A stretch of DNA of 64,000 nt from an uncultured Nitrososphaerota archaeon (GCA_963842885.1 CAWJIE010000003.1:128001-192000); one strand, 5' to 3'; shown: positions 236-63,345, counted from the stretch's first letter. The notes: a model not told the origin generated them from the sequence alone. Program-made: numbers and translations.

Positions 236-265
236 ATTGCTGCTGGAAAGGATTACGATGTCCTC
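236..265 (+). repeat. Dispersed repeat, half A copy
   Basis: ATTGCTGCTGGAAAGGATTACGATGTCCTC; aligns with 47611, 48001 and the reverse complement of 61205-61230. Confidence 0.6.
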
Positions 266-958
266 CTAACTCGTCCGCAGAGGAAGCTTGTCGAAGGCCT
301 TCATGATTATCATCAGACCTGCGAAAACGGTGTCGAACTTCCTGTCCATCTCGCTCTCCAGCCTATCGAACTTCATCTCCCAATAGATGAGCTGGAGGAC
401 GGGGTTGAGCATGCCTGTGCGACTCTTGAGCTCCCACTTCCTCCTGATCACCAGCTCCACCAACTGCTTTCTCGCTTCGCTGAGGGGGCCAAAGACGAAG
501 TTGTAAGCCCTTATCTCGTCGTCAGCGCTTGTGCACCTGTCGTTCAGCAAGTTGTTCATCTCCACCAGTTTCATCGCTTGGATGTCTGCGGGTGCCCCCT
601 GCTCGAGGACCGGCCCGACTGGCCGAAGGGACTTTTCGGGTTTCTCCTTCCCCTCTTTCTGGGCTTTACTAATCTCGGCCAACGTTTTATCCATCGACCT
701 TAGCTGGTCCTTCGAGGCCATGTTACCCTCCATCTCTTCCATTTGATCCGTCAGGTCCCTAAAGTCCTGAGCCAAAGCCATCCTTTGCTCAGTCACCTTC
801 TCCTCCACGACAGCCTTATGCCCTCGCGGCACTCCTCTCAAGGTTGGAATCAGCGTGGTATAAGGGGCTTCGAGTATCTTCCCTATTTCGCGATACGTAT
901 AGCCAGCCTTCCTCAGCGCTATTGCTCTCGCCTTCTGCTCCTTGGTTAGTCGGGGCAT
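266..958 (-). CDS. N-terminal HTH plus coiled-coil hypothetical protein
   Basis: MPRLTKEQKARAIALRKAGYTYREIGKILEAPYTTL is an HTH pattern, followed by heptad-rich helices; ATG at 958 chosen. Confidence 0.65.
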   Translation of the reverse strand: MPRLTKEQKARAIALRKAGYTYREIGKILEAPYTTLIPTLRGVPRGHKAVVEEKVTEQRMALAQDFRDLTDQMEEMEGNMASKDQLRSMDKTLAEISKAQKEGKEKPEKSLRPVGPVLEQGAPADIQAMKLVEMNNLLNDRCTSADDEIRAYNFVFGPLSEARKQLVELVIRRKWELKSRTGMLNPVLQLIYWEMKFDRLESEMDRKFDTVFAGLMIIMKAFDKLPLRTS

Positions 959-1364
959 CTCCGTACTAATAGAGAGTACGGAATCGCTTCCTATAAAGCT
1001 ATTCCCGGTCCTGTGAGACAGAACCCTCCCGTATGGCAGCTGGGGATGATTCTTGGTACATATGTACGGCCAGAGCAGAGGCAACAGCTGTGAATATGAC
1101 ACCCCAGAACAACAGGATGGGAGGCTATCCGCTTGCAAGAGCTCGTAGGGACAAGCTCACCGGTCCTGGAATTCCGGTTCGCCGAAGACCCTCGCCTTCG
1201 AGACATTCGCGGGCACGAGCAACTTGACCGAGTCCCTCTGGGGCCCCTTTGTGCTGAGCCTGCGGGACGCATTCGTCGTCTCTTCAGTCATGATGGGACC
1301 CGCCGTCGTATTCTCTTGGATAAGAGACACGAAAAAGGTTGGGACGGCCCCCTCGCCCGACGAC

Positions 1365-2054
1365 CTAGGCCTGGCTGCCTTCGTCCACCAGTCGCCTTGC
1401 GGTCTCGAAGACGGCCAGCCACTGATCCCATTTCAGCTTGCCCGTCTGGGTATTCTGCCTGCTCGGATGATATGATGCAACGAGCACGGGCTTTCCGGGG
1501 CCCATGTCGTAGGCCGCTCCGTGACGAAACTTCAGCTTCCGATTGGGGCCATACAGTTTTAGGTAGTTCTGGAAGGCAAGCCTCCCCAGGGTGACCACCA
1601 CCGCTACGTCCTCCAGCAGTTTGAGCTCCTCGACGAGGAACCCGAGGCTTCCGTTGATCTCTGCGGGAGTGGGCTTGTTCTTCGGAGGGGCGCATCGGAC
1701 TAGCGCCGTCACGAACGCGCCCTTCAGCCTCAGGCCGTCGTCTCTGCTGACGCTGGTGGGCCTGTTGGCGAATCCGGTCAGGTGCAGCGCCTTTATGAGC
1801 CAGTCCCCGGACGAATCTCCCGTGAACATTCTCCCCGTCCTGTTCCCGCCGTGCAGTGCAGGTGCGAGGCCCACTATCAGCAGCCTTGCGTACGGGTCCC
1901 CGAATCCCGGCACGGGCTTCCCCCAGTATTCCTGGTCCCGGTAGCGCCTCACCTTCTTCTTTGAAGCTGCTTCGATGTAGGCGAGCAGTCTAGGGCAACA
2001 CTTCGATTCCACCACCCTCTTCTCGAGCGCCTCAATGTCGGCCTCTCGCGTCAA
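1365..2054 (-). CDS. udgB: Uracil-DNA glycosylase family 5 (UdgB)
   Basis: GLAPALHGGNRTGRMFTGD and YHPSRQN motifs; Fe-S cysteines. Confidence 0.9.
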   Translation of the reverse strand: MTREADIEALEKRVVESKCCPRLLAYIEAASKKKVRRYRDQEYWGKPVPGFGDPYARLLIVGLAPALHGGNRTGRMFTGDSSGDWLIKALHLTGFANRPTSVSRDDGLRLKGAFVTALVRCAPPKNKPTPAEINGSLGFLVEELKLLEDVAVVVTLGRLAFQNYLKLYGPNRKLKFRHGAAYDMGPGKPVLVASYHPSRQNTQTGKLKWDQWLAVFETARRLVDEGSQA

Positions 2055-2075
2055 TTTGAGCGCCCTCCCTGGGAC

Positions 2076-2867
2076 CTATTCCACAAGCCGGCGCGGCTCG
2101 ATCAACCTGGCCCAGAGATAGACTCCGATGACGAACGCCACCAGATAGACACCACTCAGCTCGAGGTTGAACGACAACGTGCTGGCGAAGTTGCCCGTGG
2201 CCGTGCCCAGCACGATGGCCACCAGAGGGACCAAGAGCACGCCCGCCATCTGCTGCGCTTCCTTGAAGCCCTTCGAGAGCGAAGAGATCCAGGAGATCAC
2301 CGCGACGCTGGCCAAGCTCAGGCACGGGACGACCAATACCAGCGCGGAGAACCAGGCGGCGTTGGGGAGGAGGTCCACACCCGCCTGGGCAGAGTAGGTC
2401 GATACCAACGCCCAGTAGATGGTGGCCGAAAGCCAAGTCGAGAGGATAGCCAGTGAGACGGGGGCCAGCGTCTTCCCGACGAATATCGTCTGCAGAGACA
2501 CGGGCTCGGAGACGAGGCCTTCCGCCGTCTTCCGCTCCTTCTCCCCCGCGAAACTGTCCGACGCCAGCACGATAACGCTGGCGGTGGGCATGAGCAGGAA
2601 GAGGGGGAGGGTCACAACGGTGAAGAGATACCAGTAGATACCCGACCTCGGCCCAAGGGCGGCGACGGCCTGACCGAGCACCGGGGGCATGAACCGCGTG
2701 TCCTGGATGACGAGGGAGGAGGGCACCGCGCCAAGGAAGAGCGAGACGAGCGAAGGGACGGCGACGGCCATCATGATGGGCAGGATGAACACGGTTAGAA
2801 TGAGGGTCCTGCTCGCGAAGTACTCCTTGATGTCCTTGGCGGCGATGGCGAGAGCCTGATTGAGCAA
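2076..2867 (-). CDS. ABC-2 type exporter permease
   Basis: About 6 TM helices; DSFAGEKERKTAEGL motif. Confidence 0.85.
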   Translation of the reverse strand: MLNQALAIAAKDIKEYFASRTLILTVFILPIMMAVAVPSLVSLFLGAVPSSLVIQDTRFMPPVLGQAVAALGPRSGIYWYLFTVVTLPLFLLMPTASVIVLASDSFAGEKERKTAEGLVSEPVSLQTIFVGKTLAPVSLAILSTWLSATIYWALVSTYSAQAGVDLLPNAAWFSALVLVVPCLSLASVAVISWISSLSKGFKEAQQMAGVLLVPLVAIVLGTATGNFASTLSFNLELSGVYLVAFVIGVYLWARLIEPRRLVE

Positions 2868-3780: not shown

Positions 3781-3956
3781 GTGTTCGAATTCATTCTCGA
3801 CCTCCTCTCTCTATAAACGTTGACGGCGTTCACGCAGCGTCGCTCCTCGATGCGGCCAAAGATTGCTCAGAATGCAGGATCCCGCATGTCACGAATTTCT
3901 ATCCAGCGCGATCCCAGGGCAGGAGACCTCCACTTCGAGCCCGGAGGGATGGACCC

Positions 3957-37150: not shown

Positions 37151-37191
37151 AACAAGTCACCAAAAAGTGGTCGACGCCTATGGCTGATCTC

Positions 37192-47574: not shown

Positions 47575-47610
47575 TGAACGGTTCAAGGATGCTACATGAT
47601 CATGCGGTCG

Positions 47611-47648
47611 TTGCTGGAAAGGGTCACATGTCCTCAAACCGTTCTGGA
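47611..47648 (+). repeat. Dispersed repeat, half A copy
   Basis: TTGCTGGAAAGGGTCACATGTCCTCAAACCGTTCTGGA versus the reverse complement of 61191-61230. Confidence 0.7.
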
Positions 47649-47715
47649 TGGCCGATGCCTTGGAGGTTTTACCGTACGACAGGCTTAAGGGCTTCGTCGC
47701 CAGACTCAACAATGG

Positions 47716-47991: not shown

Positions 47992-48000
47992 ACATCTGTC

Positions 48001-48071
48001 GCTGCTGGAAAAGAAATCAATAACATTAGCCGCAGAACTTGGACGTAGGCTTGGACCTGCGAAGAATGGGC
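48001..48071 (+). repeat. Dispersed repeat, A+B copy
   Basis: GCTGCTGGAAAAG...CTTGGACGTAGGCTTGGACCTGCGAAG. Confidence 0.8.
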
Positions 48072-48147
48072 TACTGCCGCATGACGGCTGGGAGATTTGC
48101 TGCTGGACAGAAGCGAGCTGTTATATCGGGCTCACGCCTAAGCCGAG

Positions 48148-48861: not shown

Positions 48862-48931
48862 ACATATCGAATCTTGTGGCGTCCGGCCCTTTGGGCATCC
48901 ATCCTCTCCCCTATTCAGGGCTACGCATGGG

Positions 48932-51429
48932 CTATCCTGCCGCTGACTTGCGCTGGCGCTGCCTCAGCATGAAGTATCCTCCTATTGCCAGCGCGGCTGC
49001 AGCCGCAACGATGGAGGCCACGGCTCCGAAGTCCGTCGCGTAGCGGGCGGTCTCTATATAGGGCTTGATTACGGCCAGGTTCAGGACTGGCGACGTGCTG
49101 TTCACCGTCCCCGTCCAACCTGCGAACCTCTCGGTCCCAAGGAACCCAGCCAGCTCAGGGGCGCTGTAGGAGAAGGTGCCAGAGGGCTGCGAGGCTTTGT
49201 CCGGCCACCCAGCCATGGAAGCCACCGAAGGGCGTCGTCAGGTTGAGGTAGAACTCGGGGGTGTAGGTGTATGAAAGGTAGTACGGCCTGTCGACTACGA
49301 GCTGGCCTTCCTCAATCTTCGGCATGGCGTCGCTGGGCACGATGGGCCCTGCGAGCGTCCCGTTCACGAACACGGCTCGAAAAGCCTCCCGGTTTCGCCG
49401 ACGATGCGTTGAGCCCTCCGCCCACGGTGCCGTAGAGGAAGCTGTAGGTGCCCATTGCTTCTCCAATCCCGTTGATGGCAACGATAGTCGTCGATCCCTT
49501 TGTGTAGTTGAACATGAACGACACGTCGACGTTGGAGAGCGTCAGCCTGGAGTCATTCATTCCGGGCTGGCTCCAGGACCCGACGGCCAGGGGCACCGTG
49601 GCCCCCTCGTCGAACCAGGCCCCTTCGACCTTGGAGTTGGTAGGAAAGAAGAAGAACTCGCCCGTGACCTGGGGGGGTTGCTCCAGCTGCACCGGAATAG
49701 GGGAGAAGAGCGAGCTCCCGCTGACGTAAACGAAATACTGGGTTCTGAACTCCGGGGTGACGGAATGGCTTTCGCCGATGGCCGGGAACGTAATCGTGTT
49801 GTTCGTGGAGCCGCCAGCCCAACCGAGGAAGATGGTCCTCACCAAGCCGGTCGTGTAATTCGCAGGAAGGGATATGATTGCATCCGAGCCCGAATCGAAC
49901 CAGAGGTCTCCCGTCTGCGAGCTGGAGTTGAAGGGGCCATCGTAGCCCTCGAAGATGACGCTGTACTGCTTAACTCCGTCGAGGGTCAGCGTCACCGGCC
50001 CCTCCAAGTCAATGGAGAAGACCCACCCCTCTCGGCCGGTTGGCGTGAAGGTCCCGTTGGCGGAGAAGCCAGTCAGGGACATCCGGCTGTATGAGTCATT
50101 GCTCCAGACGGCTGGAAGGGTAATGTTCTCCGGACCGCTGGTGTACCATGCGTCCTGAACAAGGCCGGCGGGGTCCGACCTGAAGCTGACGAGGCTCTGG
50201 TTCGCCCACGTCGCGACTTCGGTGATGTTGTGCGTCAAGGAGATCATGAAAGACTGGTTTGAGCCAACATACCCGTCCGGCGAGTCACTCCGCCATGCGA
50301 TGAGCGCAACCCTCGTCCCGGTTCCGGTTGGGATGGCCGTTGGGATTACGCCAACGGTCGCTAGGTCTCCATAATCGTAGAGGCCGGCCCCAACGACAGT
50401 CCCCAGTTCGCTGGAGATTGTGAGGGATATCTTCGTCACTGTCACCTCCAACACGTTGCTGGTCAGGACCTCAGTGGCGTCCTGCGCCTCAACCTCCATC
50501 TGGTGAACGGAAGCCGTTCCGAGCGTCAGGTTGAACTCTGGGCTCGCAGTGGTAGACGAAAGCACTCCGTCGACGTACCAACCGTAAGTGACCTCTCCAA
50601 CGGTTCCGACGGCGTCGGCCGAAAGCGAAATCGGCTCTTTCGTGTAGGATTGGGACTTGTCGCTGGAAAGGGTCATAGTCGGCGAGATGTTCCTGATTAT
50701 CACCGACGAGTCATTTACCGAAACGCTGGGCTCGGATGGCACGCTCGCCGACCGGTAGGCCGTCCAGCTGGATTCGACGGTCCCATTGGAGACGAAATAG
50801 CTCTCTTTGCAGAACAGGTTGAAGGTGGGAACGCCACCGGTGGCGTTGTAGACCTCCTCGAAGACGGTGTAGTCCTCGTGAGTCTCGCCGGTGTACATGT
50901 CGTAGAATGCGGAAGAGATCGAGAAGGAGTCCCCTCCCGTGTTGGCCGTCTTGCTGACGATGACGGAGCCGTTCTCCGTCGTCACCGTGAACGTGACTAC
51001 GCCCTTGGAGATCTCCATCCTGAACCAGTAATAGCCGGGCTGGAGCCCGTTCCAAACGAACGAGTCGTAGATGGTGCTCCCGAGCGAGACGTGAGTCGTG
51101 GAGGTCGTCGCCGCCCATGAGCCGTACTGGGCTATGACCCCCACCTGGTCGTAGCTGGAGTTGGAGTCGTAGACGGACACGAGGAAGGGATAGTAGGTAT
51201 CGGCCACGCTGGGAGCCCCTTGCGGGACGTAGAACTCGGCGTCTATTTCTTGAGCCGTGGCCTGTTGCGTAGTGACTGCACCGAGGAACCACGGAGCCTC
51301 AGGAGTGGACGACTGAACTGTAGATACCCAGGCATGTCCGACAGAGGCTGGGAAGTGGGTTAGGAAAAGGGTCGAACCTGCCATGAGCACGAAAAGCGCA
51401 ATGGCCGTTGCCAGCACCCACTTCTGCAC
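48932..51429 (-). CDS. Large secreted, C-terminally anchored surface protein (peptidase-like N-domain, PKD/Ig and beta-repeats; indels near 49230 and 49375)
   Basis: Signal peptide, Ser/Thr-rich beta domains, TYGWYVDG, W..QY.V repeats, and C-terminal TM plus basic tail in ORF 48932-49225. Confidence 0.75.
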
Positions 51430-51465
51430 AATCGAGAGAGCCGCGAATTACTATTTTAATGATGC

Positions 51466-51517
51466 CTTGGGCGTAGGCTTGGACCTGCGAATGGGCCTTA
51501 TTTCACAGGTACGTTCA
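51466..51517 (+). repeat. Dispersed repeat, full half B with palindrome
   Basis: 49 of 52 nt identical to the reverse complement of 61144-61195. Confidence 0.9.
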
Positions 51518-51770
51518 AAATACCTTTGCGGCTCAACAGGTATCCCGTCACCAAGATTACCCCACCGAGAATCATGGCGTAGGGCCCTGGGCCTGTCTGC
51601 AATACTGGACTCCCACAAGAAACCTGCAGACCCGCGTAACCTGGCCAGCTGCACAGCTGAGCAGCCACCTTCGAGGGGATGGAGTAGATTCCGATCGTCC
51701 AGAGCGAACCTCCCACCAGACCCAGAGAGCCTGCTACCCACATGCATTTCCATTTGAAGACTGCAGCCAC
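51498..51770 (-). CDS. Small membrane protein whose stop codon lies inside the repeat
   Basis: Two hydrophobic segments; ends LNVPVK*. Confidence 0.5.
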   Translation of the reverse strand: MAAVFKWKCMWVAGSLGLVGGSLWTIGIYSIPSKVAAQLCSWPGYAGLQVSCGSPVLQTGPGPYAMILGGVILVTGYLLSRKGILNVPVK

Positions 51771-52664
51771 TCCAGCAACGAAGCTCTGGAAGCAAAGGAC
51801 AGCCAGATAAAAGAGCAGTCGAAAAGATACGAGGGGCGCCTTTCCGCCAAGGATATCGCGCTTGCGGACACAACGAGGGGCTACATCGAAGGACTAATCG
51901 AGAGGGACACGAGAATCAAGGCCCTTCAGGGTGAAAAGGAACAACTCATCGGGCATCTCAAGGATCTGACGAAAGTCAAGGACGATCTCAAAGCCAAGCT
52001 GAAGATGAAGCGCGACCAGCTCATGAAGGAGCCTGAGACTAAGAAGGAGATCGACGACGAAGTCGCCAGGCTAAAGAAGGAATGGGAAGAAAAGGAGAAG
52101 CCCAAGGAGGTCGACCAGGCGGCACTTGATAAGCTGACGGGTGTTCTCGTGGAGCTCAGAGGCCCATCCGAGACGGCACCTACGGTCCCTGCCGGCGACC
52201 TGAAACAGATGGTCAAGCAGATGATAGAAGGAGAGGTGAACCGTCGGATGGACGAGAAGTTCGAAGCCAGAGTGGAGACTGAGAAGAACAAGAGAGTGAA
52301 CGAAATCATCGAGGAGGTAAAGCAGAAGGAATGGGAGAAGTGGTACAATGAGAAGGTGGTACCCCTGGCGAACCAGCTTGACCAGGAGTTCAGGACGAAC
52401 GTGCTCTCCCGTCTGATGGTGCCCTGGCCTCTTACCTGTCTGGCTGGTCATCAAAACACCCACACGTTTTCGGCTGATGAATGGGATGAGCTCGTCAGGA
52501 CCGGGCGCACCAAATTCGCATGCGGTCAATCTGGATGCCTGCAAAGTTTCGTTGGCCCTTTGACCGGAATAGAGGTCAGGTCATCGCGGCTGATACAAAT
52601 CTTGTTTAGTTCGGCAGAATCTCATCCTCCTCAGAGGGACCAAAACTCGGTGGCAATCTTCTAG
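51771..52664 (+). pseudogene. Coiled-coil protein with C-terminal Cys/His cluster, 5'-truncated
   Basis: Coiled-coil frame is open upstream of 52005 (EALEAKDSQIKEQ...) without a start codon; TCLAGH...ACGQSGC. Confidence 0.55.
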
Positions 52665-52835
52665 ATCATCAGGATTCTTCATCCATCAGTCCTTCGATTC
52701 CCTACCCTCAGGGCGGCAATACCGATAGTCCTCCTCATGGTTTGCACTCGGAGGAATCCTAGGGCAGGGCCAGACACCGGTCGCGTTCTTGATTACTCGT
52801 GCTGGCGGGCGAAGGCGACGTCGACTGGACTTGGG

Positions 52836-53816
52836 TCACAAGTGGTCTTCCACGACCCGCGGCCTGTACGGCTCCTCGAGGCGCTTCATCTCGTCCTGGC
52901 TGACGCTGATCTCGGTCGCCTCGGCGAGCTCGCGAATCTGCGAGGCCTTCGTCGCACCGACGATGGGCGACGTGACGCCAGGCTTCTGCAGGAGCCACGC
53001 CAGGGCCAGCTGGGCCGGCTTAACATCCTTCTCCTTCGCGACCTCAATGAGGGCGTCGAGCACTTCGAAGTCCTGGGGCTTGAAGAACCGCTGCTTCAGG
53101 TAGCGGTCGTTCTTGTATCGATTGCCGCGAGGCTTCGCGCCCCTCCTATACTTCCCCGACAGGAACCCTCTGGCCAGCGGGCTCCATGGGATGACGCCCA
53201 CCCCCCTCGAAATGCAGAGCGGGATCATCTCCCTCTCCTCCTCCCTGTAGACCAGGCTGTACTGGGCCTGCATGCTGACGAACTTCTCCAGCCCAAGCCT
53301 TTCGCTAGTGTCCAGCGCCGTGGCGAACTGCCAGGCCCACATGCTCGAGGCACCAATGTAGTGCACGACGTTCTGAGAGTGGACGAGGTCGTCCAACGTC
53401 GACAGGGTCTCCTCGATGGGTGTTTCGTAGTCCCACCGGTGTATCTGGTAGAGGTCTATGTACCTGGTACGAAGGCGCTCGAGCGAACGCTGCACTTGAC
53501 GCCTGATGTGCTTGCGTGAGAGACCGCGGTCGTTGGGGCCGGTGCCCGTGGGGTGGTAGACCTTGGTGGCGATGACAAGGTCGTCTCGCCTCCCCTCCAC
53601 AGCCTTCCCCACGACCTCCTCCGACTTGCCGCTTGAATACATGTTGGCCGTGTCCAGGAAGTTGATCCCCAGGTCTATCGCCGCTTTGATGATCGGCAGG
53701 GACTCCTCGTAGCCGAGGGTCCAAGAGAAGCCCTCCTTCCCTCCCCCGAAGCCCATGCAGCCCAGGCAGATGCGGGACACCTTCAGACCGCTGTTCCCCA
53801 GACGGATGTATTTCAT
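52836..53816 (-). CDS. Aldo/keto reductase
   Basis: LGNSGLKVSRICLGCM, DTANMYS, IDLYQIHRWD and PWSPLARG. Confidence 0.92.
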   Translation of the reverse strand: MKYIRLGNSGLKVSRICLGCMGFGGGKEGFSWTLGYEESLPIIKAAIDLGINFLDTANMYSSGKSEEVVGKAVEGRRDDLVIATKVYHPTGTGPNDRGLSRKHIRRQVQRSLERLRTRYIDLYQIHRWDYETPIEETLSTLDDLVHSQNVVHYIGASSMWAWQFATALDTSERLGLEKFVSMQAQYSLVYREEEREMIPLCISRGVGVIPWSPLARGFLSGKYRRGAKPRGNRYKNDRYLKQRFFKPQDFEVLDALIEVAKEKDVKPAQLALAWLLQKPGVTSPIVGATKASQIRELAEATEISVSQDEMKRLEEPYRPRVVEDHL

Positions 53817-53872
53817 GGATTCGTTCTCGGCGCGGACTGCTAATTAGCTTTGCCCCAGGTGGCTGGAGACGG

Positions 53873-54247
53873 CTAGTCGGCAGGCCCTCGCTTCAGGATA
53901 AGCCACTGGCCCTTTCCTCCGGCCATTAGGACCAGCGCGTACTCCCCCTCAAGTTTCGCGCCATGAAGGGTGAAGCGGATCAGCGTAGGGGTCCTTTCGT
54001 TAAGGGTGTACTCGCCTTTGTCCCAGATCTCGACCTTTCCGGCGCCATAGTGCCCCTCGGGGATGGTGCCTTCGAAGGACCCATAGTCCAGGCTGTGGTC
54101 GTCGACCTGCATGGCGAGGTGCTTGATCCCGGGGGCGTCCGGGACCCCCTTTGGGACGGCCCACGACTTGAGCACGCCGTCCATTTCGAGCCTGAAGTCG
54201 AAGTGATGGTGCGAAGCCCAATGTTCGTGCACGACGAATCCAGGCAT
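53873..54247 (-). CDS. Stand-alone LigD 3'-phosphoesterase domain
   Basis: FVVHEHWASHHHFDFRLE, KSWAVPKG, DHSLDY and YGAG.V.IWD.G.Y. Confidence 0.92.
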   Translation of the reverse strand: MPGFVVHEHWASHHHFDFRLEMDGVLKSWAVPKGVPDAPGIKHLAMQVDDHSLDYGSFEGTIPEGHYGAGKVEIWDKGEYTLNERTPTLIRFTLHGAKLEGEYALVLMAGGKGQWLILKRGPAD

Positions 54248-54412
54248 CTCATGACGCGGCGGAGCCCTTGGTTATATCAATCTGTGCCTTGGAGGCCTTG
54301 ACATGGGAGCCGACCCCATCCCAGTGATAATCCCTTGGAGGGAGAGCTCAGAATCTGGGCCCACGCACGGCTATGCCATGACATCAGCTTGTGAGCAGGA
54401 ATCCTGGCGAAC

Positions 54413-54586
54413 CTAGAGGCCCTTGAACCCGTCCACGGCGCGCTTCTTCAAGTCGGCGAGCTGGCCCTCGGCATCCGCGCTGAACTCCTTCGCCTTGGAT
54501 TCTATCTTCTCGCGGGCCTCGGCGAAGGCCTTCATCTCCTTCGCCTTCCTGCGCTCCTCTGCCATCGCCCTTGCTTCCGAGCTCAA
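54413..54586 (-). CDS. Short charged helical protein, possibly A-ATPase subunit H/G-like (not in ORF track)
   Basis: TTG overlaps the atpD stop; MAEERRKAKEMKAFAEAREKIESKAKEFSADAEGQLADLKKRA. Confidence 0.5.
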   Translation of the reverse strand: MSSEARAMAEERRKAKEMKAFAEAREKIESKAKEFSADAEGQLADLKKRAVDGFKGL

Positions 54587-55219
54587 GCCGCCTGCCTCCG
54601 CCTCTCCAGCACCCGCTTGACGCTCTTAAGCCTTACAAACTCCTCCCTGTCGCGCTCCTCGAGGGTCGACGCGATGAACCTGATCTGGGCCTCGTACTGC
54701 GGGATTATGATGAATTCGAGAGCGTTGATGGTGCGCTGGGTCTTCTCGATTTCGCTGACCAGCCTGAAGATCACGTTCTCGATCTCGGCCGCCTTCAGTA
54801 TGCTGGGGAGAAGCGAAGTCAGGTAGGAGTAGGCCTCGTCCAGCGAATATGAGGTATCGCCGAAGCCATAGGGGCGGAGGACCTCCTTGAAGTTCAGCGT
54901 CAGTGACGGGACGTCGACGTCGACTATCCTCTTGACGTTGACCAATGACGTTCGCGGCGGGGGGCGCCGACTTCGCGGTGGCCTCCAGGCGCATGGCGCC
55001 CATTTCAACGTAGGCCTCGTAGAGGAAGTCGTATCCCTTGAGTATGGAGGCGTTGAGGCTCCTGTTGGCCTTGGACGCCTCCTCCACGTACTCGTTGAGC
55101 TTCTTGAGAAGCACCTCCCGCTTGTCGTCCAAGATGTCGTGAATCTTCTTGGTCATGACCAGCGAGCGCCGGAGCCTGATGAGCTCCAGTTTCGTGGGCT
55201 GGATCTTCTGGCTGGACAT
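54583..55219 (-). CDS. atpD: A/V-type ATP synthase subunit D (indels)
   Basis: PTKLELIRL...LDDKREVL and EIEKTQRTINALE...LEERDRE. Confidence 0.92.
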
Positions 55220-55225
55220 CTCCCT

Positions 55226-56632
55226 CTACTGCTTCTCCCTGTAGTACTTCGCCAGGTTCTCCGTCTTGATCTTGGTGAGCTCGCGTTCCGGCAGGATGGA
55301 GAGCACTTCGTTCCATGCGATGGCCATGCTCTCGTCCAAGGTCCTGGATTCGTCGTAACTCTGCATGAGGAACTTGTTCTCGAAGGAGTCGGCGAAGTCG
55401 AGGTACCTCAGGTCCACGGGTGCCAGCCCGGCCTTGCCTACGATGCCCACGAGGGCGCGCAGCTCCTGCGCCCTGGAGTATGAATCGTACATCTGGTTGC
55501 TCACCTCGGCGTGGTCCGGCCTCGTCTTCCCTTCGCCTATGCCGTCCTTCATGAGCCTGCTCAGGCTGGAGAGGACCTGGACCGGCGGGTAGATGCCCTT
55601 CCTGAAGAGCTCCCTGTCGAGGACCACCTGGCCTTCGGTGATGTAGCCGGTCAGGTCGGGTATGGGGTGGGTGATGTCGTCGCTTGGCATGCTAAGTATG
55701 GGCAGCTGAGTGATGCTCCCGGTCTTGCCCTTGATCCTGCCAGCCCGCTCGTAGATGGTGGAGAAGTCGGTGTAGAGGTACCCGGGGTATCCCTTCCTTC
55801 CTGGGACCTCCTCCCTTGCGGCGCTGATCTCTCTGAGGGCTTCGGCGTAGTTGGTCATGTCGGTCAGTATGACGAGGACGTGAAGGTTGCCAGTGAAGGC
55901 GAGGTATTCGGCCGCCGTCAGGGCCACCTTGGGGGTGATGATCCTTTCGATGGCGGGGTCGCTGGCCAGGTTGAGGAACAGGACGCTTCTCTTCATGGCC
56001 CCCGTCTCCTCCAGGGCCTTCCTGAAGAACGAGGCCTCGTCGTTCTGCACGCCGACGGCGGCGAAGACGACGGCGAAGTCCTGACCCTTGCCCTTGACCG
56101 AAGCTTGGCGTGCTATCTGGGCCGCGAGGAGGTTGTGGGGCATCCCTGCGCCCGAAAAGATGGGGAGCTTTTGGCCCCTGACAAGTGTTAGCATCGCGTC
56201 GATGACCGAGACGCCCGTCTGGATGAAGTCGATGGGGTAGTCCCTCATGTACGGGTTCATGGGCGAGCCGTTGACATCGCGGAACTCCTCCCCCAGCGGG
56301 GGCGGGAGCCCGTCCAAAGGCTGCCCGAGGCCGTCGAAGACCCTGCCAAGGAGCTCCATGGAGACGGGCATCTCCATGGGCTTGCCGAGGAACTTGACCT
56401 GAGTGCCACTGGTGGATATGCCCGAGGTCCCGGAGAAGACCTGGATGACGGCCCTGCCGCCGCCCACTTCCAGGACCCTACCAAGCCTCTTCGAGCCTGG
56501 CCCCAGTTCCACTTCCACCAGCTCGTCGTAAGAGACCTGGCCGACCCCTTCGACTATCAGGAGCGGGCCCCTCAATTCCGCCACGTCGGAGTACTCGACT
56601 CCGCCGCTTCTCTTAGGCTGCAATCTGGGCAA
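55226..56632 (-). CDS. atpB: A/V-type ATP synthase subunit B
   Basis: [10 protein letters not shown] and [13 protein letters not shown]. Confidence 0.97.
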
Positions 56633-58397
56633 CTCCTTGAGGCAAGAGGGCTTTGAAAGCCGCGTCCATCTCCTTGGTGAGGTCGTCTATCCTGAAGATC
56701 TCGTCGTCCTTGATTTCGAAACGGGCACGCATGATCTTGGATATGACGGGCAGGGCGCGGATCGACTGGAGCGGGACCCCCGCCTTCAGAGACTCGCCGG
56801 CCTCCTTGTAGAAGCCGACGATGAGCTTCAGCAGCGCCACCTGCCTCTTGGGGTTGGTGTAGCTGTCTACGGGGTCGTAGGCCGTCTGCTGGAGGAAGCC
56901 TATCTTGATTATCCTGGCGACGTCAAGGATGAGCTTCTCCTCGTCGGGAAGGACCTCGGGGCCTAGGAGGCGGACGATCTCCTTCAGCGTGTCTTCCCGC
57001 TGCAGGATCTGATATGCCTCCAGGCGCAGGCTGTACCAATCCTTGTCAACGTTCGCGCTCCACCATGGGGCCACCTTGTCCAGGAAGCCGGAGTAACTCG
57101 TCATCCAGTTGATGGCCGGATAGTGCCTGGAGTAGGCAAGCTTCGTGTCCAGCCCCCAGAAGGTCCTGATGAACCTCATGGTGTGCGTGGTCACGGGCTC
57201 CGTGAAATCTCCCCCGCTGGGCGAGACGGCCCCGACCAGGCTGATGGAGCCCGACCTGGCGGGCGTGCCATAGGTGTTCACACGGCCCGCCCGCTCGTAG
57301 AACTCGGCCAGCCTTGAAGCCAGGTACGAAGGATATCCTTCCTCCGCAGGCATCTCCTCCAGCCTGCCGCTTATCTCCCTCAGAGCCTCCGCCCACCTGC
57401 TGGTGGAATCCGCCAGCATGACCACGTCGTAGCCCATGTCCCTGTAGTACTCCGCGAGGGTGGCGCCGGTGTAGATGCTCGCCTCTCGGGCGGCCACGGG
57501 CATGTTGCTGGTGTTGGCGACCAGGACTGTCCTCTGCATCAGGGGCTTCCCTGAGTAGGGATCGATGAGCTGGGGGAACTCCTTGAGCACTTCGGTCATC
57601 TCGTTGCCCCTCTCTCCGCAGCCGACGTAGACCACCACCTTGGTGTCGGCCCAGGAGGCTATCTGGTGGCTCATGACCGTCTTGCCCGTCCCGAAGCCTC
57701 CGGGGATGGCGGCTGCGCCCCCCTTGGCCAGAGGGAAGAAGGTGTCGATGACCCTCTGACCGGTTATGAGCGGAATCTCGGGCTCGAGGCGCTGCTTGTA
57801 AGGCCTCGGCCGTCGCACGGGCCAGTAATGATACATCTTCAGCGGGGTCCTGGCACCGTTGTCGATTGTGACGATCTCATGTTCGATATCGTAGTCGCCT
57901 TCGGGCTCGGCGCTCTTTACGACGCCGGCCTTGACATCAGGGGGGACCATCACACGGTGCTCCACAGTGGAGGTTTCGTTGACGGTCCCGAGGATGGTGC
58001 CTGGCTCGACCTCGTCGCCAGCCTTCACCTTGGGCAGGACGTGCCACTTGACGTTCTTGGGGAGGGAGAAGGCGTTGACGCCTCTCTTGATGTACGCGCC
58101 GGAGGCTGCTGCCAGCTCAGGGAGCGGCCTCTGAAGGCCATCGTAGATCTGGCTCATTATGCCCGGGCCCAGCGTGACGGAGAGGGGCATGCCCGTCCCT
58201 ATTACGGGCTCTCCAGGATGAAGGCCGCTCGTCGATTCGTAGACCTGGACGAACGCGACATCCCCCGTGACCTTGATGACTTCGCCCACCAGCTTGTCTT
58301 CGCCGACGCTGACCGTCTCGGCCATCTTGACCTCGGACATGCCGTCGGCCTTAACCGCGGGGCCGCTGATCCATACTATCTTGCCTTTGGCCACCAA
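56613..58397 (-). CDS. atpA: A/V-type ATP synthase subunit A
   Basis: [15 protein letters not shown] and [13 protein letters not shown]. Confidence 0.97.
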
Positions 58398-58399
58398 AT

Positions 58400-59026
58400 C
58401 TACCTACGCTCCTTGAAGAACCGTTCATAAACCCTTTTCCGTATGCTGAGCTTCATCCTTTCAAGCCTCGCCTCAAACGTGCTGTTAAACTCTATACTTC
58501 CGTCCTTGCTGACTATGATGAAGCCGCCGGCGCTGTCGATGTTCTTCTTTGCGATGCTAAGGTCGAAGCCATGGAACTCCTTGGCGACATCTTTGAGGGC
58601 CGCCGACAGGGAGGACCTGTCTCCGTCAGGACAAGAGAGTGTGTATACGCCGGGATCCAGCTCTTGCAGAGACTCCCGGAGAAGCTTCACAAGGGCCCTC
58701 TCATAGCGAGCGTCGCGTGGCGCCGAGCGCACTGCGGCCAAGGCGTCGATCACGATGCCTTCGAAGAAGCTCTCGAACGCTGATAGCTGAGCGTTCCTGG
58801 CCTGGAGCTCGGCGGAGCCCAGGATCTTCCTCTTGACATTTTCAGCCTGCTTTCTTCCTTCGAGCATAGACTCCTTGTACTTCTCTGAAGCCCTCTGCTC
58901 GTAGTCTTCGACTAGCTTCAGGGAGGAGGCCAAGGCCTCGTCGAGGAGAGCCTTGAGCGAAGCCGATTCTTCGTTCAGGACCTTTCCGACGGTCGCTTCT
59001 ACCGCATTGCTCGACAATTTACACAC
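58400..59026 (-). CDS. atpE: A/V-type ATP synthase subunit E
   Basis: Coiled-coil N-terminus, [10 protein letters not shown]...NSTFEARL; operon position. Confidence 0.88.
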
Positions 59027-59322
59027 TACACCCCCAGCATGGCTCTAAGAACTTTGCTGTATTCGGTCTCCTCGGCCTTGGCGCCCGGGGTCAGGATTTC
59101 GTATATGAGCGGGACGGCTCGCTTCTTCCTATAATATGCGAGCTTCAACCTGATGGCGGCCGAAAGGTCAGAACCGAGGAGGACGAGCCCGATGCCTTCA
59201 GTCTTGAAAAGACGGTCGACAGCGGCGAGCATCTCTGACGCGGTATCCACTTCGATCCCATCGACGCCCACGAGGCGGAAGGCGGTGACGAACGGCCGCT
59301 TCCCTACGGCGACGACCTTCAT
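59026..59322 (-). CDS. atpF: A/V-type ATP synthase subunit F
   Basis: MKVVAVG...TAFRLVGVDG. Confidence 0.9.
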   Translation of the reverse strand: MKVVAVGKRPFVTAFRLVGVDGIEVDTASEMLAAVDRLFKTEGIGLVLLGSDLSAAIRLKLAYYRKKRAVPLIYEILTPGAKAEETEYSKVLRAMLGV

Positions 59323-59478
59323 TGGCTCAAAATGCCAACCACATGTGATTTAAGCATTTGCGCTCACGTTCCACGTGAAGACGGAGTTGATCGCCTTCTC
59401 GGCTGACCCCATCGAATCGGGCTCGCCCGGGTCCGTCATTCTGAAATAGGCCGCTCGTCCACTGGAGTATGGGGAAGA

Positions 59479-59739
59479 ATGAGATTCACTAGGCTGGTTT
59501 GGGTCGCCTCCGCGTTGGTCGGCTTGGCTGCCACCTACGCCCTTTCCTACGTCTCGACCCCCATGCTCTTCCCGGTCGTCGGCGTTCAGCAGTTCGGCGT
59601 CCCTGCGCCCGTCTACGCAGCACCGGTGTACCCGAACGCCAGCCTTAGAATGGTGCCCGCGGGGATCATAGTGGACTTCCTCTTCTGGTTCGTCCTGAGC
59701 GTCGCCATCCTGGCCGTCGCCGCCGGTTGGAGAAGGTAG
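59479..59739 (+). CDS. Small 2-TM membrane protein
   Basis: Hydrophobic; FGVP...IIVDFLFWF. Confidence 0.6.
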   Translation: MRFTRLVWVASALVGLAATYALSYVSTPMLFPVVGVQQFGVPAPVYAAPVYPNASLRMVPAGIIVDFLFWFVLSVAILAVAAGWRR

Positions 59740-59765
59740 CCAAGCCTAGCCCGAACAACGTCTGC

Positions 59766-60371
59766 CTATCGCTCGGACCGGCCGTATGCCTCGTAGAAGA
59801 CCTGTTGCGTTGTGGGCTTCCTCCCCCTCTTGAGCGAGGGGGACCTCTTGTCAGGAAGAGGATGGCCTATCGAAATGGTCCCGACAGGGTGTTGGTCCTC
59901 CGGGATCCCTAGTATCCTCCTGATCGCGACGGGGTCGGGGGCTCCGGCGAAGGTGGCAGCGAGACCACGGTCAACGGCGGCCAGAAGGACGATCATGCAG
60001 CCGGCCCCGATGTCGAAGTACCAGTACGGGACTGGCCACTCGATCTCCTTCCCGTCAGGACCAAGTTTGTCGGGCTCGCGGTAACGGTCGTGGTAGACCT
60101 TCTCGCTGACGCAGGGGACGACCAACACAGGCGAGGCCGAGATGAACGAATCGAACCCCGCATCGACGTAGCCCGACTCGCCTTGAGCTTCCGCCAACTT
60201 CCTCTTCGTGGCTTCGTCTCTGACCACGACGTAGCAGGAACCTTGGCTGAAGCCCGCGCTGGGCGCGTGAAGTGCTAGCCCCAAGATGGCGTCGATGTCA
60301 TCGTCGGGGACCTCCTCGTCCGAGAAGTGCCTGACCATCCTCCTCTTTAAGACGACCGACTGGAATTCCAT
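59766..60371 (-). CDS. Nitroreductase family protein
   Basis: KRRMVRHF, APSAGFSQ, LLAAVDRGL and LGIP. Confidence 0.9.
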   Translation of the reverse strand: MEFQSVVLKRRMVRHFSDEEVPDDDIDAILGLALHAPSAGFSQGSCYVVVRDEATKRKLAEAQGESGYVDAGFDSFISASPVLVVPCVSEKVYHDRYREPDKLGPDGKEIEWPVPYWYFDIGAGCMIVLLAAVDRGLAATFAGAPDPVAIRRILGIPEDQHPVGTISIGHPLPDKRSPSLKRGRKPTTQQVFYEAYGRSER

Positions 60372-60603
60372 GGAGTTCTCGGCTAGGGGGAAGCTCGGCA
60401 GCAGATAAGAATTGGCTGCGTTCCAGCGGTTGGAGGGATCACTAGGCATCCGTTTGGGTCCTGTTCGCCATGGACCTGCCCTGGAGTCGACCCAACGAAG
60501 CCCGAAGGAGTCCCCACCCATCGAGATAGGAGACTCCCTCGGTCTTGCCGCTCCTGGAGGGTCAGGGCCGTCCCGAGCCGGCTATTGGACAAGGCTCTAA
60601 TAT

Positions 60604-60982
60604 GTGAAGCCCGTAGCTCGCTTTGTGGTAGTCAACCTATTCACGTCGAACTACGTCCCGGGATGCAAGGTGGACAAGGTCGTTGGGCTCGTCTACGGGA
60701 TAACGGTGAGGTCGAGAGGCATCGGCGGGAACATCATGGCCGGCCTCAGGACGCTTGGCGGAGGAGAGATACACGAGTACACCGAGCTGGCGCACCAGGC
60801 AAGGCAGCAGGCACTGGACAGGCTGTCCCAGCAGGCTGAGACCCTCGGCGCCAACGCCGTGATCAGCGTGATGTTCGACTCTACCGAGATCGGTCACGAC
60901 CATGGACGAGATAATCGCCTTCGGTACAGCTGTCGTCGTTTCGCCCGTGGCAGACGGCCAGCAGTTCGTCAGGCTGAGCTAG
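60604..60982 (+). CDS. YbjQ/UPF0145 family protein (indel at about 60897)
   Basis: GLVYGITVRSR, GGEIHEYT, LGANAVI and FGTAV. Confidence 0.88.
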
Positions 60983-61143
60983 GCCCGAAGGCTTCGACGA
61001 CCGGCACCACTCTCGTAGGCAGGCCTATCCGTGATGCTTCGCGAAGGAGCTCCTGGGTTGGAAGATAGGGCTGCAGTGGTGTCACTTCAGGGATCCACAA
61101 TGCAGCCTGTGTGTGCAGGCTGACGTCTGGGAAAAGCTGCAAG

Positions 61144-61230
61144 TGAACGTACCTGTGAAATAAGGCCCTTTCGCAGGTCCAAGCCCACGTCCAAGAACGG
61201 CGGTTGAAGACATCGTTATTCTCTTCCAGC
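61144..61230 (-). repeat. Dispersed repeat, complete A+B copy, interrupted at the A core by the IS
   Basis: Reverse complement: GCTGGAAGAGAATAACGATGTCTTCAACCGCCGTTCTTGGACGTGGGCTTGGACCTGCGAAAGGGCCTTATTTCACAGGTACGTTCA. Confidence 0.85.
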
Positions 61231-61292
61231 ACTCATGAAAGACGCCCTATGGGCGGGCTTCCTAAAGCCTGCCTTCCGCCAGCGACGCTGTG

Positions 61293-62336
61293 TCAGGCGT
61301 CCATGGATTTGAGCTTTGTCTTGTACCTCTCCCTGTTCGTGGACTCGTACTCCTCCCTTCTCGTGAGCATGAACCAGACGATCTTCAGCATCTTGTTGGC
61401 CACGGCTACTACGGCCTTCTGGTCGCCTCTCCTCTCCTTCACCCGCTCGTAGAAGGACCTCAGCCTCGGGTCGTGCATCGATGCAGACCTCGCCGCCTCC
61501 ACCATGATCCATCGGAGCATCTTGGAGCCCTGCTTCGTTATGGCTCCGTGATACTCCACGGAGCCCGATTGGTGGAGAGAGGGCGCCAGCCCCGCCCAGG
61601 AAACGAGCTTCTTGTAGTTGGGGAACCTCTTGATGTCCCCTATCTCGGACCTTATGAGGAGGGCCGAGAAGACGTCCACCCCCGTCAGGCTCAGGAGCAG
61701 CCTCACGTCCTCGTCCTGTGACGCCCTCTCCGTGATCCTGTCGTCCACCCTGGAGATCTGCCCGTCCAGGCTCTCCAGGTGGGCCAGGTGGTTGTCCAGC
61801 ATGAGCCTGTCCATGGGAGGGAGCTCCAGCGACCTCAGCCACCCCACTCCTCCCTTCCCGAACAGGTCGGAGAAGTCATGCTTCAGGCCGTTCCTGTCGA
61901 CCATCGCGTGAACCCTGTTCTTCACCATGGTGCGCACCCTCACTATGGAGGCCCTGTGCCTGATGAGCTCCCTCATCTCCCTGACATCCTTGGGAGGGAC
62001 GTAGCTCTCGGGTATGAGATCGGCCCTCAGCAGATGCGCCAGTATCCTTGCGTCCACTTTGTCGCTCTTTATCCTCGCCCACGCTATGGCCTTGGTCTTC
62101 GAAGGGGAGGCCAACACGGTCGCGACGTGCATGGAATCGAGCCTCTCGTATATGCTTAGCCAGTAAGCCCCCGTCGACTCCATGACCACCCTGTCGTCCA
62201 TGGTGAGCGTCGCCGCTAGGGAGGATATCCCCTCATGGTCGTTGTCGAAGCCGAACTCGTCCACTACGGCCCCGTGCTCGTCCATCATGGAGACCCTGCA
62301 TCTCGTCTTGCCCACGTCTATTCCCACGTACTTCAT
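61293..62336 (-). CDS. IS110-family recombinase/transposase
   Basis: YVGIDVGK, VVMESTG and KSDKVDA (DEDD RuvC-like); GLAPSLHQSG catalytic Ser region. Confidence 0.96.
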   Translation of the reverse strand: MKYVGIDVGKTRCRVSMMDEHGAVVDEFGFDNDHEGISSLAATLTMDDRVVMESTGAYWLSIYERLDSMHVATVLASPSKTKAIAWARIKSDKVDARILAHLLRADLIPESYVPPKDVREMRELIRHRASIVRVRTMVKNRVHAMVDRNGLKHDFSDLFGKGGVGWLRSLELPPMDRLMLDNHLAHLESLDGQISRVDDRITERASQDEDVRLLLSLTGVDVFSALLIRSEIGDIKRFPNYKKLVSWAGLAPSLHQSGSVEYHGAITKQGSKMLRWIMVEAARSASMHDPRLRSFYERVKERRGDQKAVVAVANKMLKIVWFMLTRREEYESTNRERYKTKLKSMDA

Positions 62337-62349
62337 CTTTTCACCTCCT

Positions 62350-62490
62350 TCGTACGCAGCTGGCATCGGGCTGCATTCACTCATGCGGGCGCGAAGCCCA
62401 CTTCCTTAGCAGCTCAGGATTCGCCCAGTCAGCAACACGGTCGCCAGGACCATGCTGGAAATAGGGCTTGCCAGCCCATACGGTATCAGG
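62350..62490 (-). ncRNA. Putative bridge/seek RNA of the IS110 element (limits approximate)
   Basis: Two stem-loops whose internal loops match the target (TTTCCAGCA, TTGCTG) and the donor junction (TAAGG, CATGAGTG). Confidence 0.7.
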
Positions 62491-62586
62491 GGGCGTCTTT
62501 CATAAGGTCAGCAATAGATGCCCGGATGCCTGTTCGGGATGGTAGAAATAAGAGGAGGTCTACAGGTTCTACAGACTGGGTTCAGG

Positions 62587-63213
62587 ATGGTGAAGAACAG
62601 GACGCTCGTTATTGGCTTATGTGTGCTCGTAGCGGCGTCTGCCTTGGCTTTTGGACTGCTAAGTCAGGAGTATCATCTAGTTGAGAATGCCTCGACACCG
62701 ATGGTCGTTCATTCTCCCGTACACGACGGTCTTGAGCTCACGGCTACGATTGAGCGAGAGGGACAGAACGTCAGCGTCATCGCCGAGGTTAACAATACGC
62801 TATCAACATACCTGCAAGTGAATTCAACTTCCATCGATAATCCTGCCTACGGACCCTGCCAGCAGGGTTTTGCCACGGGGGTAAGAGTCTACATGGGACA
62901 TTATTCGCTCAGCAATCTATCACAAGCTAAGGAACTCTTGCTCTATGACCCATCGTCGCAATACCGCTGCCCGGCATTCTTCACATTTCAGTATACCTTT
63001 TCACCAAATAGCGCAATGGCAACGGTACAAGCAACTCTAGGTGGCTATCAACAGAATGGATCTCGGCTTGTCAGTGAAACGTCGGTTGTCTCGGGTTATT
63101 GGGTCGGCTCTGGGCAGAGTTACATATTCCAGAGATTCCCAGCTGGAGAATATTCGGTTCTCGTCTTCGACGCGTGGGGAGACGAAGCAGTCGGATACTT
63201 CCAAGTCGCCTAG
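62587..63213 (+). CDS. Membrane-anchored secreted hypothetical protein
   Basis: N-terminal TM; beta-rich; FPAGEYSVLVFDAWGD C-terminus. Confidence 0.7.
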   Translation: MVKNRTLVIGLCVLVAASALAFGLLSQEYHLVENASTPMVVHSPVHDGLELTATIEREGQNVSVIAEVNNTLSTYLQVNSTSIDNPAYGPCQQGFATGVRVYMGHYSLSNLSQAKELLLYDPSSQYRCPAFFTFQYTFSPNSAMATVQATLGGYQQNGSRLVSETSVVSGYWVGSGQSYIFQRFPAGEYSVLVFDAWGDEAVGYFQVA

Positions 63214-63323
63214 TCTTTGCACCGCGAACTTGACCAAGCGCACCTACGCAACGGACTGAATTGAGGACATCGTAATTCCTTCCGGCATCAACAGATATCC
63301 AAATGCATCTTCCAGTGGCTCTC

Positions 63324-63345
63324 ATTCACAGGTCCGAGCCCATGT
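63324..63345 (-). repeat. Dispersed repeat, half B copy
   Basis: Reverse complement: ACATGGGCTCGGACCTGTGAAT. Confidence 0.6.

Follow-up and report, generated by a model that had tools for sequence, protein, structure and literature searches.

Co-oriented repeat modules at the joints of shuffled accessory gene blocks in Conexivisphaerales archaea, and a candidate recombination site among them

Short repeats that recur between accessory genes raise the question of whether they are sites at which gene blocks are recombined or a mosaic of passive repeats among variable genes. This question is raised by a 64,000-nucleotide stretch of DNA (the window) from an uncultured Nitrososphaerota archaeon (GCA_963842885.1, CAWJIE010000003.1:128001-192000; G000:C3:128001-192000 in our numbering). 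The source, G000, is a metagenome-assembled genome (MAG) of 2.03 Mb in 11 contigs that is 87% complete. A reading made from the nucleotide sequence alone (the sequence-only reading) had described nine copies of one bipartite repeat with halves A and B and proposed a gene-cassette recombination site. We found that the repeats are a genus-restricted family of separable intergenic modules, designated B, A, LK, M1, and M2, in Conexivisphaerales archaea, and that the window holds parts of two arrays of this system. Module B marks the joints between shuffled accessory blocks, and these joints are co-oriented irrespective of gene direction. It is a candidate crossover or recognition site for conservative, orientation-preserving recombination, a reading to which we assign a probability of roughly 0.45.

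G000 was compared with four sister genomes of the same genus (G001 to G004; G001 is 59% complete), and 41 genomes were included in the motif search. Modules were defined by iterated nhmmer (E≤0.01) and complemented by mismatch scans (up to 2 mismatches for the B 16-mer), and genes were called with our own rough codon-usage caller. The 44 sister loci analyzed (356 kb in total) were selected for the presence of B. Population data were Logan metagenome contigs from runs X1 to X4, and rare variants are beyond their reach. The window is conserved with the four same-genus genomes at 1.3-36 kb and 52.8-61 kb (~75-84% identity), and its variable parts are 36-52.8 kb and 61-63.4 kb.

Module B consists of an invariant 16-mer, GGCTTGGACCTGCGAA, within a conserved block of 23 nt. 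Just 5' of the 16-mer is (G)GACGTR; on the 3' side is a loose (A)nTGGGCTGAC, resolved as 0-4 variable bases and then TGGGCTGA(C). In a profile of 113 distinct copies from G000 and the sister loci, information drops to near zero outside positions -7 to +22, and the profile is asymmetric and non-palindromic, with no inverted arms. The sequence-only reading had attributed a palindrome with outer arms to half B in general and had taken arms with a spacer as the mark of a recombinase site. The palindrome is a two-copy variant, present only at 51466 and 61144, where B is followed by a truncated inverted B. The near identity claimed for these two copies (49/52) is real (51466-51517 and 61144-61195; 52 nt, 94% complementary). 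They are the only inverted B pairs in G000, where the same scan gave two further loose one-mismatch matches. Two CTTGGAC direct repeats had also been described in half B, and the first of them is weakly conserved in the profile.

The exact 16-mer occurs four times in the window, compared with ~3e-5 expected, and ~50 times in the genome; 66 matches are found in G000 at up to 2 mismatches. A scan of the genome and its relatives had been proposed; in a mismatch scan at up to 1 mismatch, B has 58 copies in G000, 24 in G001, 60 in G002, 44 in G003, and 1 in G004. Outside the genus, there is one match in one genome of another genus and none in 35 further relatives, and a reversed control pattern gave no match in any of the 41 genomes. 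A species-wide scan of 185,579 genomes, one per prokaryotic species, gave at least 106 matching stretches; among the 80 listed, the only holders of multiple copies are Conexivisphaerales/Nitrososphaerota MAGs, and the rest are single matches. Carriage of B by viruses was considered and set aside; 21 single 16-mer matches occur in viral contigs, which by our own estimate is about chance level (the size of the collection is not given). An origin from a tRNA-derived att site was also rejected; the best match of the B consensus to 31 tRNA genes is 13 of 14 nt on the opposite strand (E = 0.068) and was treated as chance.

The rough gene caller places 62 of the 66 B copies between genes. All four orientation classes of flanking genes are represented (21, 14, 13, and 12 copies), which shows no tie between B and gene direction. 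B copies are spaced 0.3-11 kb apart, mostly 0.3-6 kb. Among neighboring modules 80-10,000 nt apart, 76 pairs in G000 are on the same strand and 4 on opposite strands, and the corresponding numbers for the 44 sister loci are 86 and 4, in agreement with the cassette-like array that had been proposed. On contig C2, all modules at 14.7-103.9 kb are on one strand and all modules at 104.6-154 kb are on the other. In the window, one array runs rightward at 45.9-51.5 kb and one leftward at 61.1-63.5 kb, and the two bracket the conserved block between them. No module was found by nhmmer at 1.3-36 kb, where the sequence-only reading had likewise seen no copy.

Module orientation showed no replication signal in GC skew. 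Contig C3 has three orientation switches in 576 kb. One switch (C4:337-341 kb) is near an orc1/cdc6 gene at C4:344.7 kb and three others are not, and replication-coupled orientation was therefore considered unsupported. At the point where polarity flips on C2 (G000:C2:103887-104626), inverted A-B-M5 strings face away from a 580-bp center. This center encodes a basic 50-aa CxxC protein (MPVCDVCGK...), and a paralogue lies by an A copy at C7:3576-3722.

The blocks between joints behave as cassettes. As the sequence-only reading had claimed, the repeats bound accessory genes; modules are at block boundaries, the blocks are rearranged from one species to another, and B is where homology ends. Segments between modules are found again in sister species (80-95% identity), in another place and order. 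Their genes include ATP-binding cassette (ABC) transporter pairs, a major facilitator superfamily (MFS) transporter, a DUF6036 nucleotidyltransferase, DUF3800, a helicase, helix-turn-helix (HTH) regulators, an archaeosortase, a PMT-type glycosyltransferase, an Alba paralogue, and many orphans, and some blocks are two-gene operons. The Alba block (window 45941-46479) recurs in other contexts on two G002 contigs (C62 and C90) at 87-90% identity, and its homology to G002 starts at A and ends at the 3' end of the B core. A 2.2-kb ABC-transporter block is bounded exactly by two B copies in both G000 (C2:26692-28864) and G002, and the flanks of the G002 locus contain no segment matching G000. One 16-kb G002 array has its best G000 matches at no fewer than 10 scattered places on six contigs, with no synteny. 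Cassette identity is 87-95%, compared with 75-84% for the conserved block at 53.8-60.4 kb.

As to enrichment of modules at breakpoints, which the sequence-only reading had suggested testing, 36 of 207 inter-genome homology ends lie within 40 nt of a module, compared with 4.6% of bases, but the p-value overstates this enrichment because ends of high-scoring segment pairs are not independent events. Within the genome, 34 of 692 duplication ends lie within 60 nt of a module. Thirty shared segments have a module near an end in both genomes; in 20 of them the module, side, and relative strand are the same, in 2 only the strand is opposite, and in 8 the modules are on different sides. Metagenome contigs (runs of two studies) leave collinearity with the window at 46490, 48010, 48047/48080, and 51490 and continue into other sequence. 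All of these positions are inside A or B, and the breaks at 48010 and 51490 occur in three runs and two runs, respectively. Contig joints from B to B (46481 to 51470, 48063 to 51466/7, 48072 to 51469, and 51496 to 52820) were rejected as repeat artefacts because one side is only 21-31 nt long. At the left end of the window, an EamA-type transporter gene (1-216, plus strand) encodes only residues 1-111 in G000 and is cut at an A copy (214-265); the G002 ortholog is intact (298 aa). Homology to three sister species around the truncated gene ends at 212-217, and the 3' remainder was not found in the G000 assembly.

Iterated nhmmer found 45 copies of A, 59 of B, 37 of M1, 22 of M2, and 17 of LK in G000. 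A single bipartite element of ~90 bp, as first described, does not exist as such, since the two modules are separable. With up to 3 mismatches allowed over 26 nt, A has 23 copies in G000 and 18 in G002, and it was not found in G001, G003, or G004, the first two of which have 24 and 44 B copies. M2 is present in all five genus members. The modules combine in several neighbor orders (LK>M1, 15; B>M1, 13; B>M2, 9; A>LK, 8; B>A, 5; A>B, 3), and gene-free B-M2-B-M1 strings occur at C4:335462-335699. When A-B-M1 and A-LK-M1 strings are compared by eye, B appears as an extra piece of ~38 nt between 'ATCATCAAC' and 'CTGAC'. The core of M2 is a 26-bp palindrome (TTTGCC-C-AACCT-GT-AGGTT-A-GGCAAA; window 63443-63476) adjoining a TATA-like TTAAAAA. 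M2 is directly upstream of the gene at 63491, a place kept in the orthologous position in all four sister species, and the palindrome could be an operator. M1 has, by eye, a TATA-like stretch and a small palindrome.

Of the nine places listed in the sequence-only reading, seven were recovered by model or mismatch scan, the one at 47611 was seen by eye only, and the one at 38226-38317 appeared in no scan and was not accepted. The A+B copy at 61144-61230 (minus strand) was right as to B; its A part is only the right half of an A copy split by an insertion sequence (IS). Modules M1, M2, and LK, the A copy at 63263-63302 (minus strand), and an IS110-family transposase gene at 61293-62384 (minus strand) go beyond that list. 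The features of the window are as follows.

214-265 (nhmmer 227-252), plus strand: A copy with left extension, at the truncation point of the EamA-type transporter gene
45941-45980 (nhmmer 45941-45969), plus strand: left-truncated A copy, left boundary of the Alba-paralogue cassette; the G002:C62 alignment starts here
46457-46490 (nhmmer 46459-46479), plus strand: B joint, right boundary of the Alba cassette
47611-47648, plus strand: degenerate A-like stretch, seen by eye only and missed by nhmmer and mismatch scans
47988-48027 (nhmmer 47991-48026), plus strand: A copy, with a contig break at 48010
48036-48079 (nhmmer 48042-48071), plus strand: B joint 15 nt after A, with contig breaks at 48047 and 48080
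51466-51517 (nhmmer B 51472-51496), plus strand: B then truncated inverted B, the palindromic variant, with a contig break at 51490 in two runs
61144-61195 (nhmmer B 61168-61191), minus strand: B then truncated inverted B, partner of 51466-51517
61204-61229, minus strand: right half of the IS-split A copy, from the alignment of three IS copies and their flanks
61230-62508, minus strand: IS110-family insertion sequence of 1279 bp, from Pfam, three genomic copies, and the empty site
62509-62535, minus strand: left half of the split A copy, degenerate, from the IS copy alignment
63263-63302 (nhmmer 63273-63301), minus strand: A copy, from nhmmer
63324-63345, minus strand: B joint with 2 mismatches in the 16-mer, found only in the scan at up to 2 mismatches
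63355-63485, minus strand: M2 module with the 26-bp palindromic core, upstream of the gene at 63491

The sequence-only reading had placed the recombinase outside the window and had advised looking for one beside the best-conserved copy. The window does contain such a gene, and it adjoins the best-conserved A+B copy. The open reading frame at 61293-62384 (minus strand) matches PF01548 DEDD_Tnp_IS110 (E = 2.1e-27) and PF02371 Transposase_20 (E = 3.3e-24), but its element uses A, into which it inserts rather than moving cassettes. The likely start is at 62336, with GGAGGTG upstream, which gives a coding sequence of 61293-62336 (or to 62384), a left end of ~172 nt, and a right end of 63 nt. G000 has three copies of the element, one of them broken. 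All three interrupt A at one and the same point, between ...CTATTGC-TG and TG-CTGGAA..., with a shared TG, and there are no terminal inverted repeats or long duplication. The sequence-only reading had also proposed a search for empty sites, and for the IS110 element one exists in the metagenome contigs. Contigs from X1 (depth 26.5) and X2 (depth 11.9) pass from 61229 directly to 62509, leaving out 1279 nt with 2 shared letters; they have more than 255 nt on each side and, apart from this gap, match the window at 99.7% identity over 2.3 kb. These contigs set the bounds of the element at 61230-62508 and indicate polymorphism for it in the population. At the empty site, A is a clean copy, and nothing else has moved. 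That A is the insertion target, or landing pad, of this IS110 element is well supported.

In contigs of X1-X4 over window 44001-64000, identity is itself a mosaic, with 99.7% at 44069-45661 and 59813-63411 and 94-96% at 53.6-59.5 kb in the same run. Either the MAG is a strain mixture or segments have been exchanged between strains. Window 52005-52671 has no contig cover in X1-X3.

The left end of the element is predicted to fold into two stem-loops with internal loops (z = -2.5). In the first loop, TTCCAGCA is antisense to target TG+CTGGAA over 8 nt, and GTTGCTG matches the target's left half in the sense direction over 7 nt. In the second loop, CATGAGTGA matches the junction of the right and left ends in the sense direction over 9 nt, and TAAGG is antisense to the beginning of the left end. 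The loops match A and the element's own ends, not B. From these matches, we infer that the left end encodes a bridge-RNA-like fold with one loop for A and one for the joined ends; it matched no Rfam model. Bridge RNA architecture and the habit of targeting repeated intergenic elements have been described for the family (PMC11208160). The element shares with IS621-type IS110 elements the DEDD and Transposase_20 domains, the lack of terminal inverted repeats, a 2-nt core in the target and both ends, a long left end whose two internal-loop stem-loops match target and donor (here predicted only), a repeated intergenic target, and a scarless empty site (PMC11208160). It differs in its archaeal host, in its core (TG instead of CT), and in having module A as target. 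It is thus an ordinary IS110 family member with an unusual host and a newly defined target. Only G000 and G002, which are also the two genomes with A, yielded IS110 genes. G002 has another, divergent IS110-like gene (C52:27000-31252, at ~3808-3860 of this locus) that starts ~50 nt after a truncated M1 and is cut off by the contig end; its position suggests a further family member with M1 as target.

Co-orientation, the exact ending of homology at B, the higher identity of shared B-to-B units than of conserved genes, and the invariance of the motif together point to exchange at B. In the proposed mechanism, a block bounded by B would leave its array as a circle with a single B and enter again at any other B, and arrays would be built and shuffled in this way. 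In its fullest form, which we hold more tentatively than the role of B as a crossover site, B would be the site of an unrecognized non-integron archaeal cassette system. An unknown or RNA-guided recombinase would move B-bounded blocks in fixed orientation, the blocks would have their own promoters and genes in either direction, species-specific arrays would be drawn from a cross-species pool, and IS110 elements would have evolved to use A and M1 as safe landing pads.

Several observations weigh against exchange at B. No enzyme acting on B was found, so the term recombination site is applied to B only conditionally. IS110 genes were not found in G001 and G003 despite their 24 and 44 B copies, which leaves no recombinase tied to B. 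Matches to the tyrosine integrase family PF00589 are at C5:9.5-12 kb, C3:398.6-400.1 kb, and C4:323.7 kb, with a weak, stop-interrupted one at C4:76.8-77.3 kb. The three PF00589 regions that were scanned have no B nearby, and the same holds for the integrase genes in G002 and G003; these integrases were rejected as the B enzyme because no module lies beside them and because B and the integrases differ in species range. B also lacks the inverted arms that recombinase core sites typically have. The frequent gene-free module combinations (B>M1, B>M2, A>LK, and LK>M1) resemble a mosaic repeat family. A cassette with a cyclic nucleotide monophosphate (cNMP)-binding gene has opposite orientations relative to A at two loci, and a simple site-specific mechanism does not predict this inverted cassette. 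The metagenome contigs contained no circular form or B-to-B excision product, the former also having been named as something to search for. The inflated p-value of the homology ends belongs here as well, as does the fact that every genome compared is a MAG, in which misjoins at repeats are possible.

The lack of a B-linked enzyme, the asymmetric site, the inverted cassette, and the gene-free strings make a passive mosaic the main rival. The modules would then be intergenic repeats comparable to Neisseria intergenic mosaic elements (NIME) or bacterial interspersed mosaic elements (BIME), available as passive substrates when homologous recombination or gene conversion takes place with incoming or paralogous DNA. 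B as a short conserved joint and M1, M2, A, and LK as spacers would then promote exchange of adjacent genes with no dedicated B recombinase. In build, the family is most like NIMEs. In both, short conserved joints (dRS3 in NIMEs) alternate with module families (50-150-bp RS in NIMEs) in genus-specific arrays beside variable genes with inserted IS elements, and the modules described here are strung together in many orders, some with intervening genes and some, as at C4:335462-335699, without. NIME arrays have been described with joints between repeat families, strain dynamics, IS insertions, and nearby recombination end points, and dRS3 joints have been proposed as recombinase sites (PMC1797815). 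However, dRS3 is a 20-bp inverted repeat, while B is asymmetric and strictly co-oriented, with an inverted pair in two copies only; whole genes and operons lie between the joints here, and the host is an archaeon. An identity of 23 nt is short for efficient homologous recombination, which alone leaves unexplained an invariant 16-mer among genomes whose conserved genes are ~20% divergent, and it does not account for co-orientation of 76:4 and 86:4. We consider this explanation unlikely on balance, but a serious competitor. Repetitive extragenic palindromic (REP) elements, BIMEs, and BOX repeats are likewise intergenic modules in varied orders that IS110-family elements target (PMC11208160). The present modules have no GC-rich stem-loop, only ordinary folds, and no associated gene like the REP-associated tyrosine transposase (RAYT); a single PF01797 gene lies beside TnpB with flanks unlike the modules, and co-orientation is strict over tens of kb. 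The modules could also be small non-autonomous mobile elements, similar to miniature inverted-repeat transposable elements (MITE), REP, or palindrome-associated transposable elements (PATE), inserted strand-specifically and accumulating in gene-poor islands that tolerate insertion, with cassette boundaries coinciding because both are intergenic. Strand-specific single-strand transposition can give co-orientation with replication direction. The ~38-nt extra piece that B forms by eye in A-B-M1 strings, the strongly differing copy numbers among sisters (58, 24, 60, 44, and 1), and the orientation switch near orc1/cdc6 are consistent with this. Against it, no terminal inverted repeats or target duplications were seen by eye in aligned M2 copies and A/LK junctions (no formal scan was made), B alone has no notable fold (z -1.2 to -1.6), and the three switches on C3 come with no GC-skew signal. 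The only HUH Y1 transposase is in an IS605-type unit whose ends are unlike the modules, and homology of shared blocks that ends exactly at B is left unexplained. Insertion of this kind appears distinctly less probable than the passive mosaic. IS605/TnpA was also rejected as a mobilizer because the flanks of the element share nothing with the modules. G000 has one IS605-type unit (Y1 transposase and TnpB; C5:212311-213695) and five further TnpB-like genes, none near modules.

The IS110 bridge recombinase might itself move cassettes through A (M1 in other species) as target-like sites, with B as a bystander. In favor of this, its gene adjoins the best-conserved A+B copy, A is confined to the two genomes in which IS110 genes were detected, an A copy marks the exact truncation point of the EamA gene, and bridge recombinases can perform insertion, excision, and inversion between donor and target (PMC11208160). 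But co-oriented B arrays exist in G001 (59% complete) and G003, where neither IS110 nor A was found, the loops match A and the element's own ends and not B, and the empty site shows a clean A copy with nothing else moved; such a role is very unlikely. We give slightly less weight still to the modules being expression signals (promoter or operator, terminator) or small RNA genes, although for M2 the role is left open, given its palindrome by TTAAAAA conserved in all five species just upstream of the gene at 63491; the TATA-like stretch and small palindrome of M1 point the same way. For B, orientation is unrelated to flanking genes, an outward promoter fits by eye 6 of 13 B-M1 cases and not the other 7, and shuffled blocks ending at B are unexplained, so a promoter or terminator role was rejected. 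Rfam gave nothing at gathering thresholds in the window and chance-level matches at 45.8-51.7 and 60.9-63.6 kb, and nine folds covering both strands of B, A+B, and M2 were ordinary (z -1.59 to +0.66). A coding role for A and B was rejected too; reverse-strand peptides look conserved by eye in some copies, but the frames differ, and B is not coding because its internal spacer varies from 0 to 4 nt. In its working, the system is most like an integron array. In both, co-oriented repeated sites bound short accessory blocks whose order and presence vary between relatives; as in attC arrays and clusters of attC sites lacking integrases (CALIN), co-oriented sites less than 4 kb apart are present (76:4 and 86:4, spacings mostly 0.3-6 kb). 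An IS110-family element inserts into an array site here, and IS1111-attC elements insert into integron attC sites. Yet the system fails the attC and IntI tests. As the sequence-only reading had recognized, these are not canonical attC sites; none of its nine copies overlaps an RYYYAAC...GTTRRRY pair, and the window has 6 such pairs compared with 5.35 in shuffles. B is a linear conserved 23-nt motif with no notable hairpin, whereas attC is a structure-defined imperfect palindrome with R boxes whose sequence is not conserved in this way. There is no IntI-like gene beside the arrays, some blocks are two-gene operons, and cassette genes run in both directions and must, unlike those of integrons, bring their own promoters. 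Integrons with ordinary attC sites have been reported in archaeal MAGs, and the archaeal integrons covered in that report have canonical sites (PMC9668308). A canonical integron or attC cluster among co-oriented sites 0.3-6 kb apart is close to refuted.

Other candidates and neighboring features were also examined. The assembly has no clustered regularly interspaced short palindromic repeat (CRISPR) array with repeats spaced 50-90 nt apart. A 290-aa HTH protein adjoining the A copy at 227 is single-copy and was dismissed. An array-end recombinase was sought at the low-GC start of C2, where only transporter and hydrolase gene fragments were found. This region (G000:C2:1-13000; 42% GC compared with 58%) contains fragmented ABC-permease genes, a DegV gene, pieces of a pyrroloquinoline quinone (PQQ) beta-propeller, and an S33 hydrolase, and it may be foreign DNA or mis-binned sequence. 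At window 36197-38055 and 43389-45253, two gene pairs for transcription factor B (TFB, with TFIIB repeat) and TATA-binding protein (TBP) form a 1.9-kb inverted duplication whose arms are 78% complementary. Between them are 5.3 kb with a methyltransferase, a Vsr-like endonuclease, and a tetratricopeptide repeat (TPR) protein, and further TFB copies are at C3:434.7, C3:512.2, and C5:417 kb.

A literature search on Conexivisphaerales repeats and on archaeal intergenic repeats, cassettes, and IS110 elements gave no account of such repeats; supplements of papers may hold annotations. A 2007 account of NIME arrays describes them as not observed outside Neisseria (PMC1797815). The arrays described here are a parallel to them and a second case of IS110-family elements with mosaic-repeat landing pads. 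An archaeal IS110 element with known target, donor junction, and natural empty site is useful for comparison of bridge recombinases. If B-bounded blocks do move as units, they would represent a second route for stockpiling and shuffling accessory genes, independent of integrons, and a little-studied soil and peat archaeal lineage would have a cassette system with a simple linear site of 23 nt.

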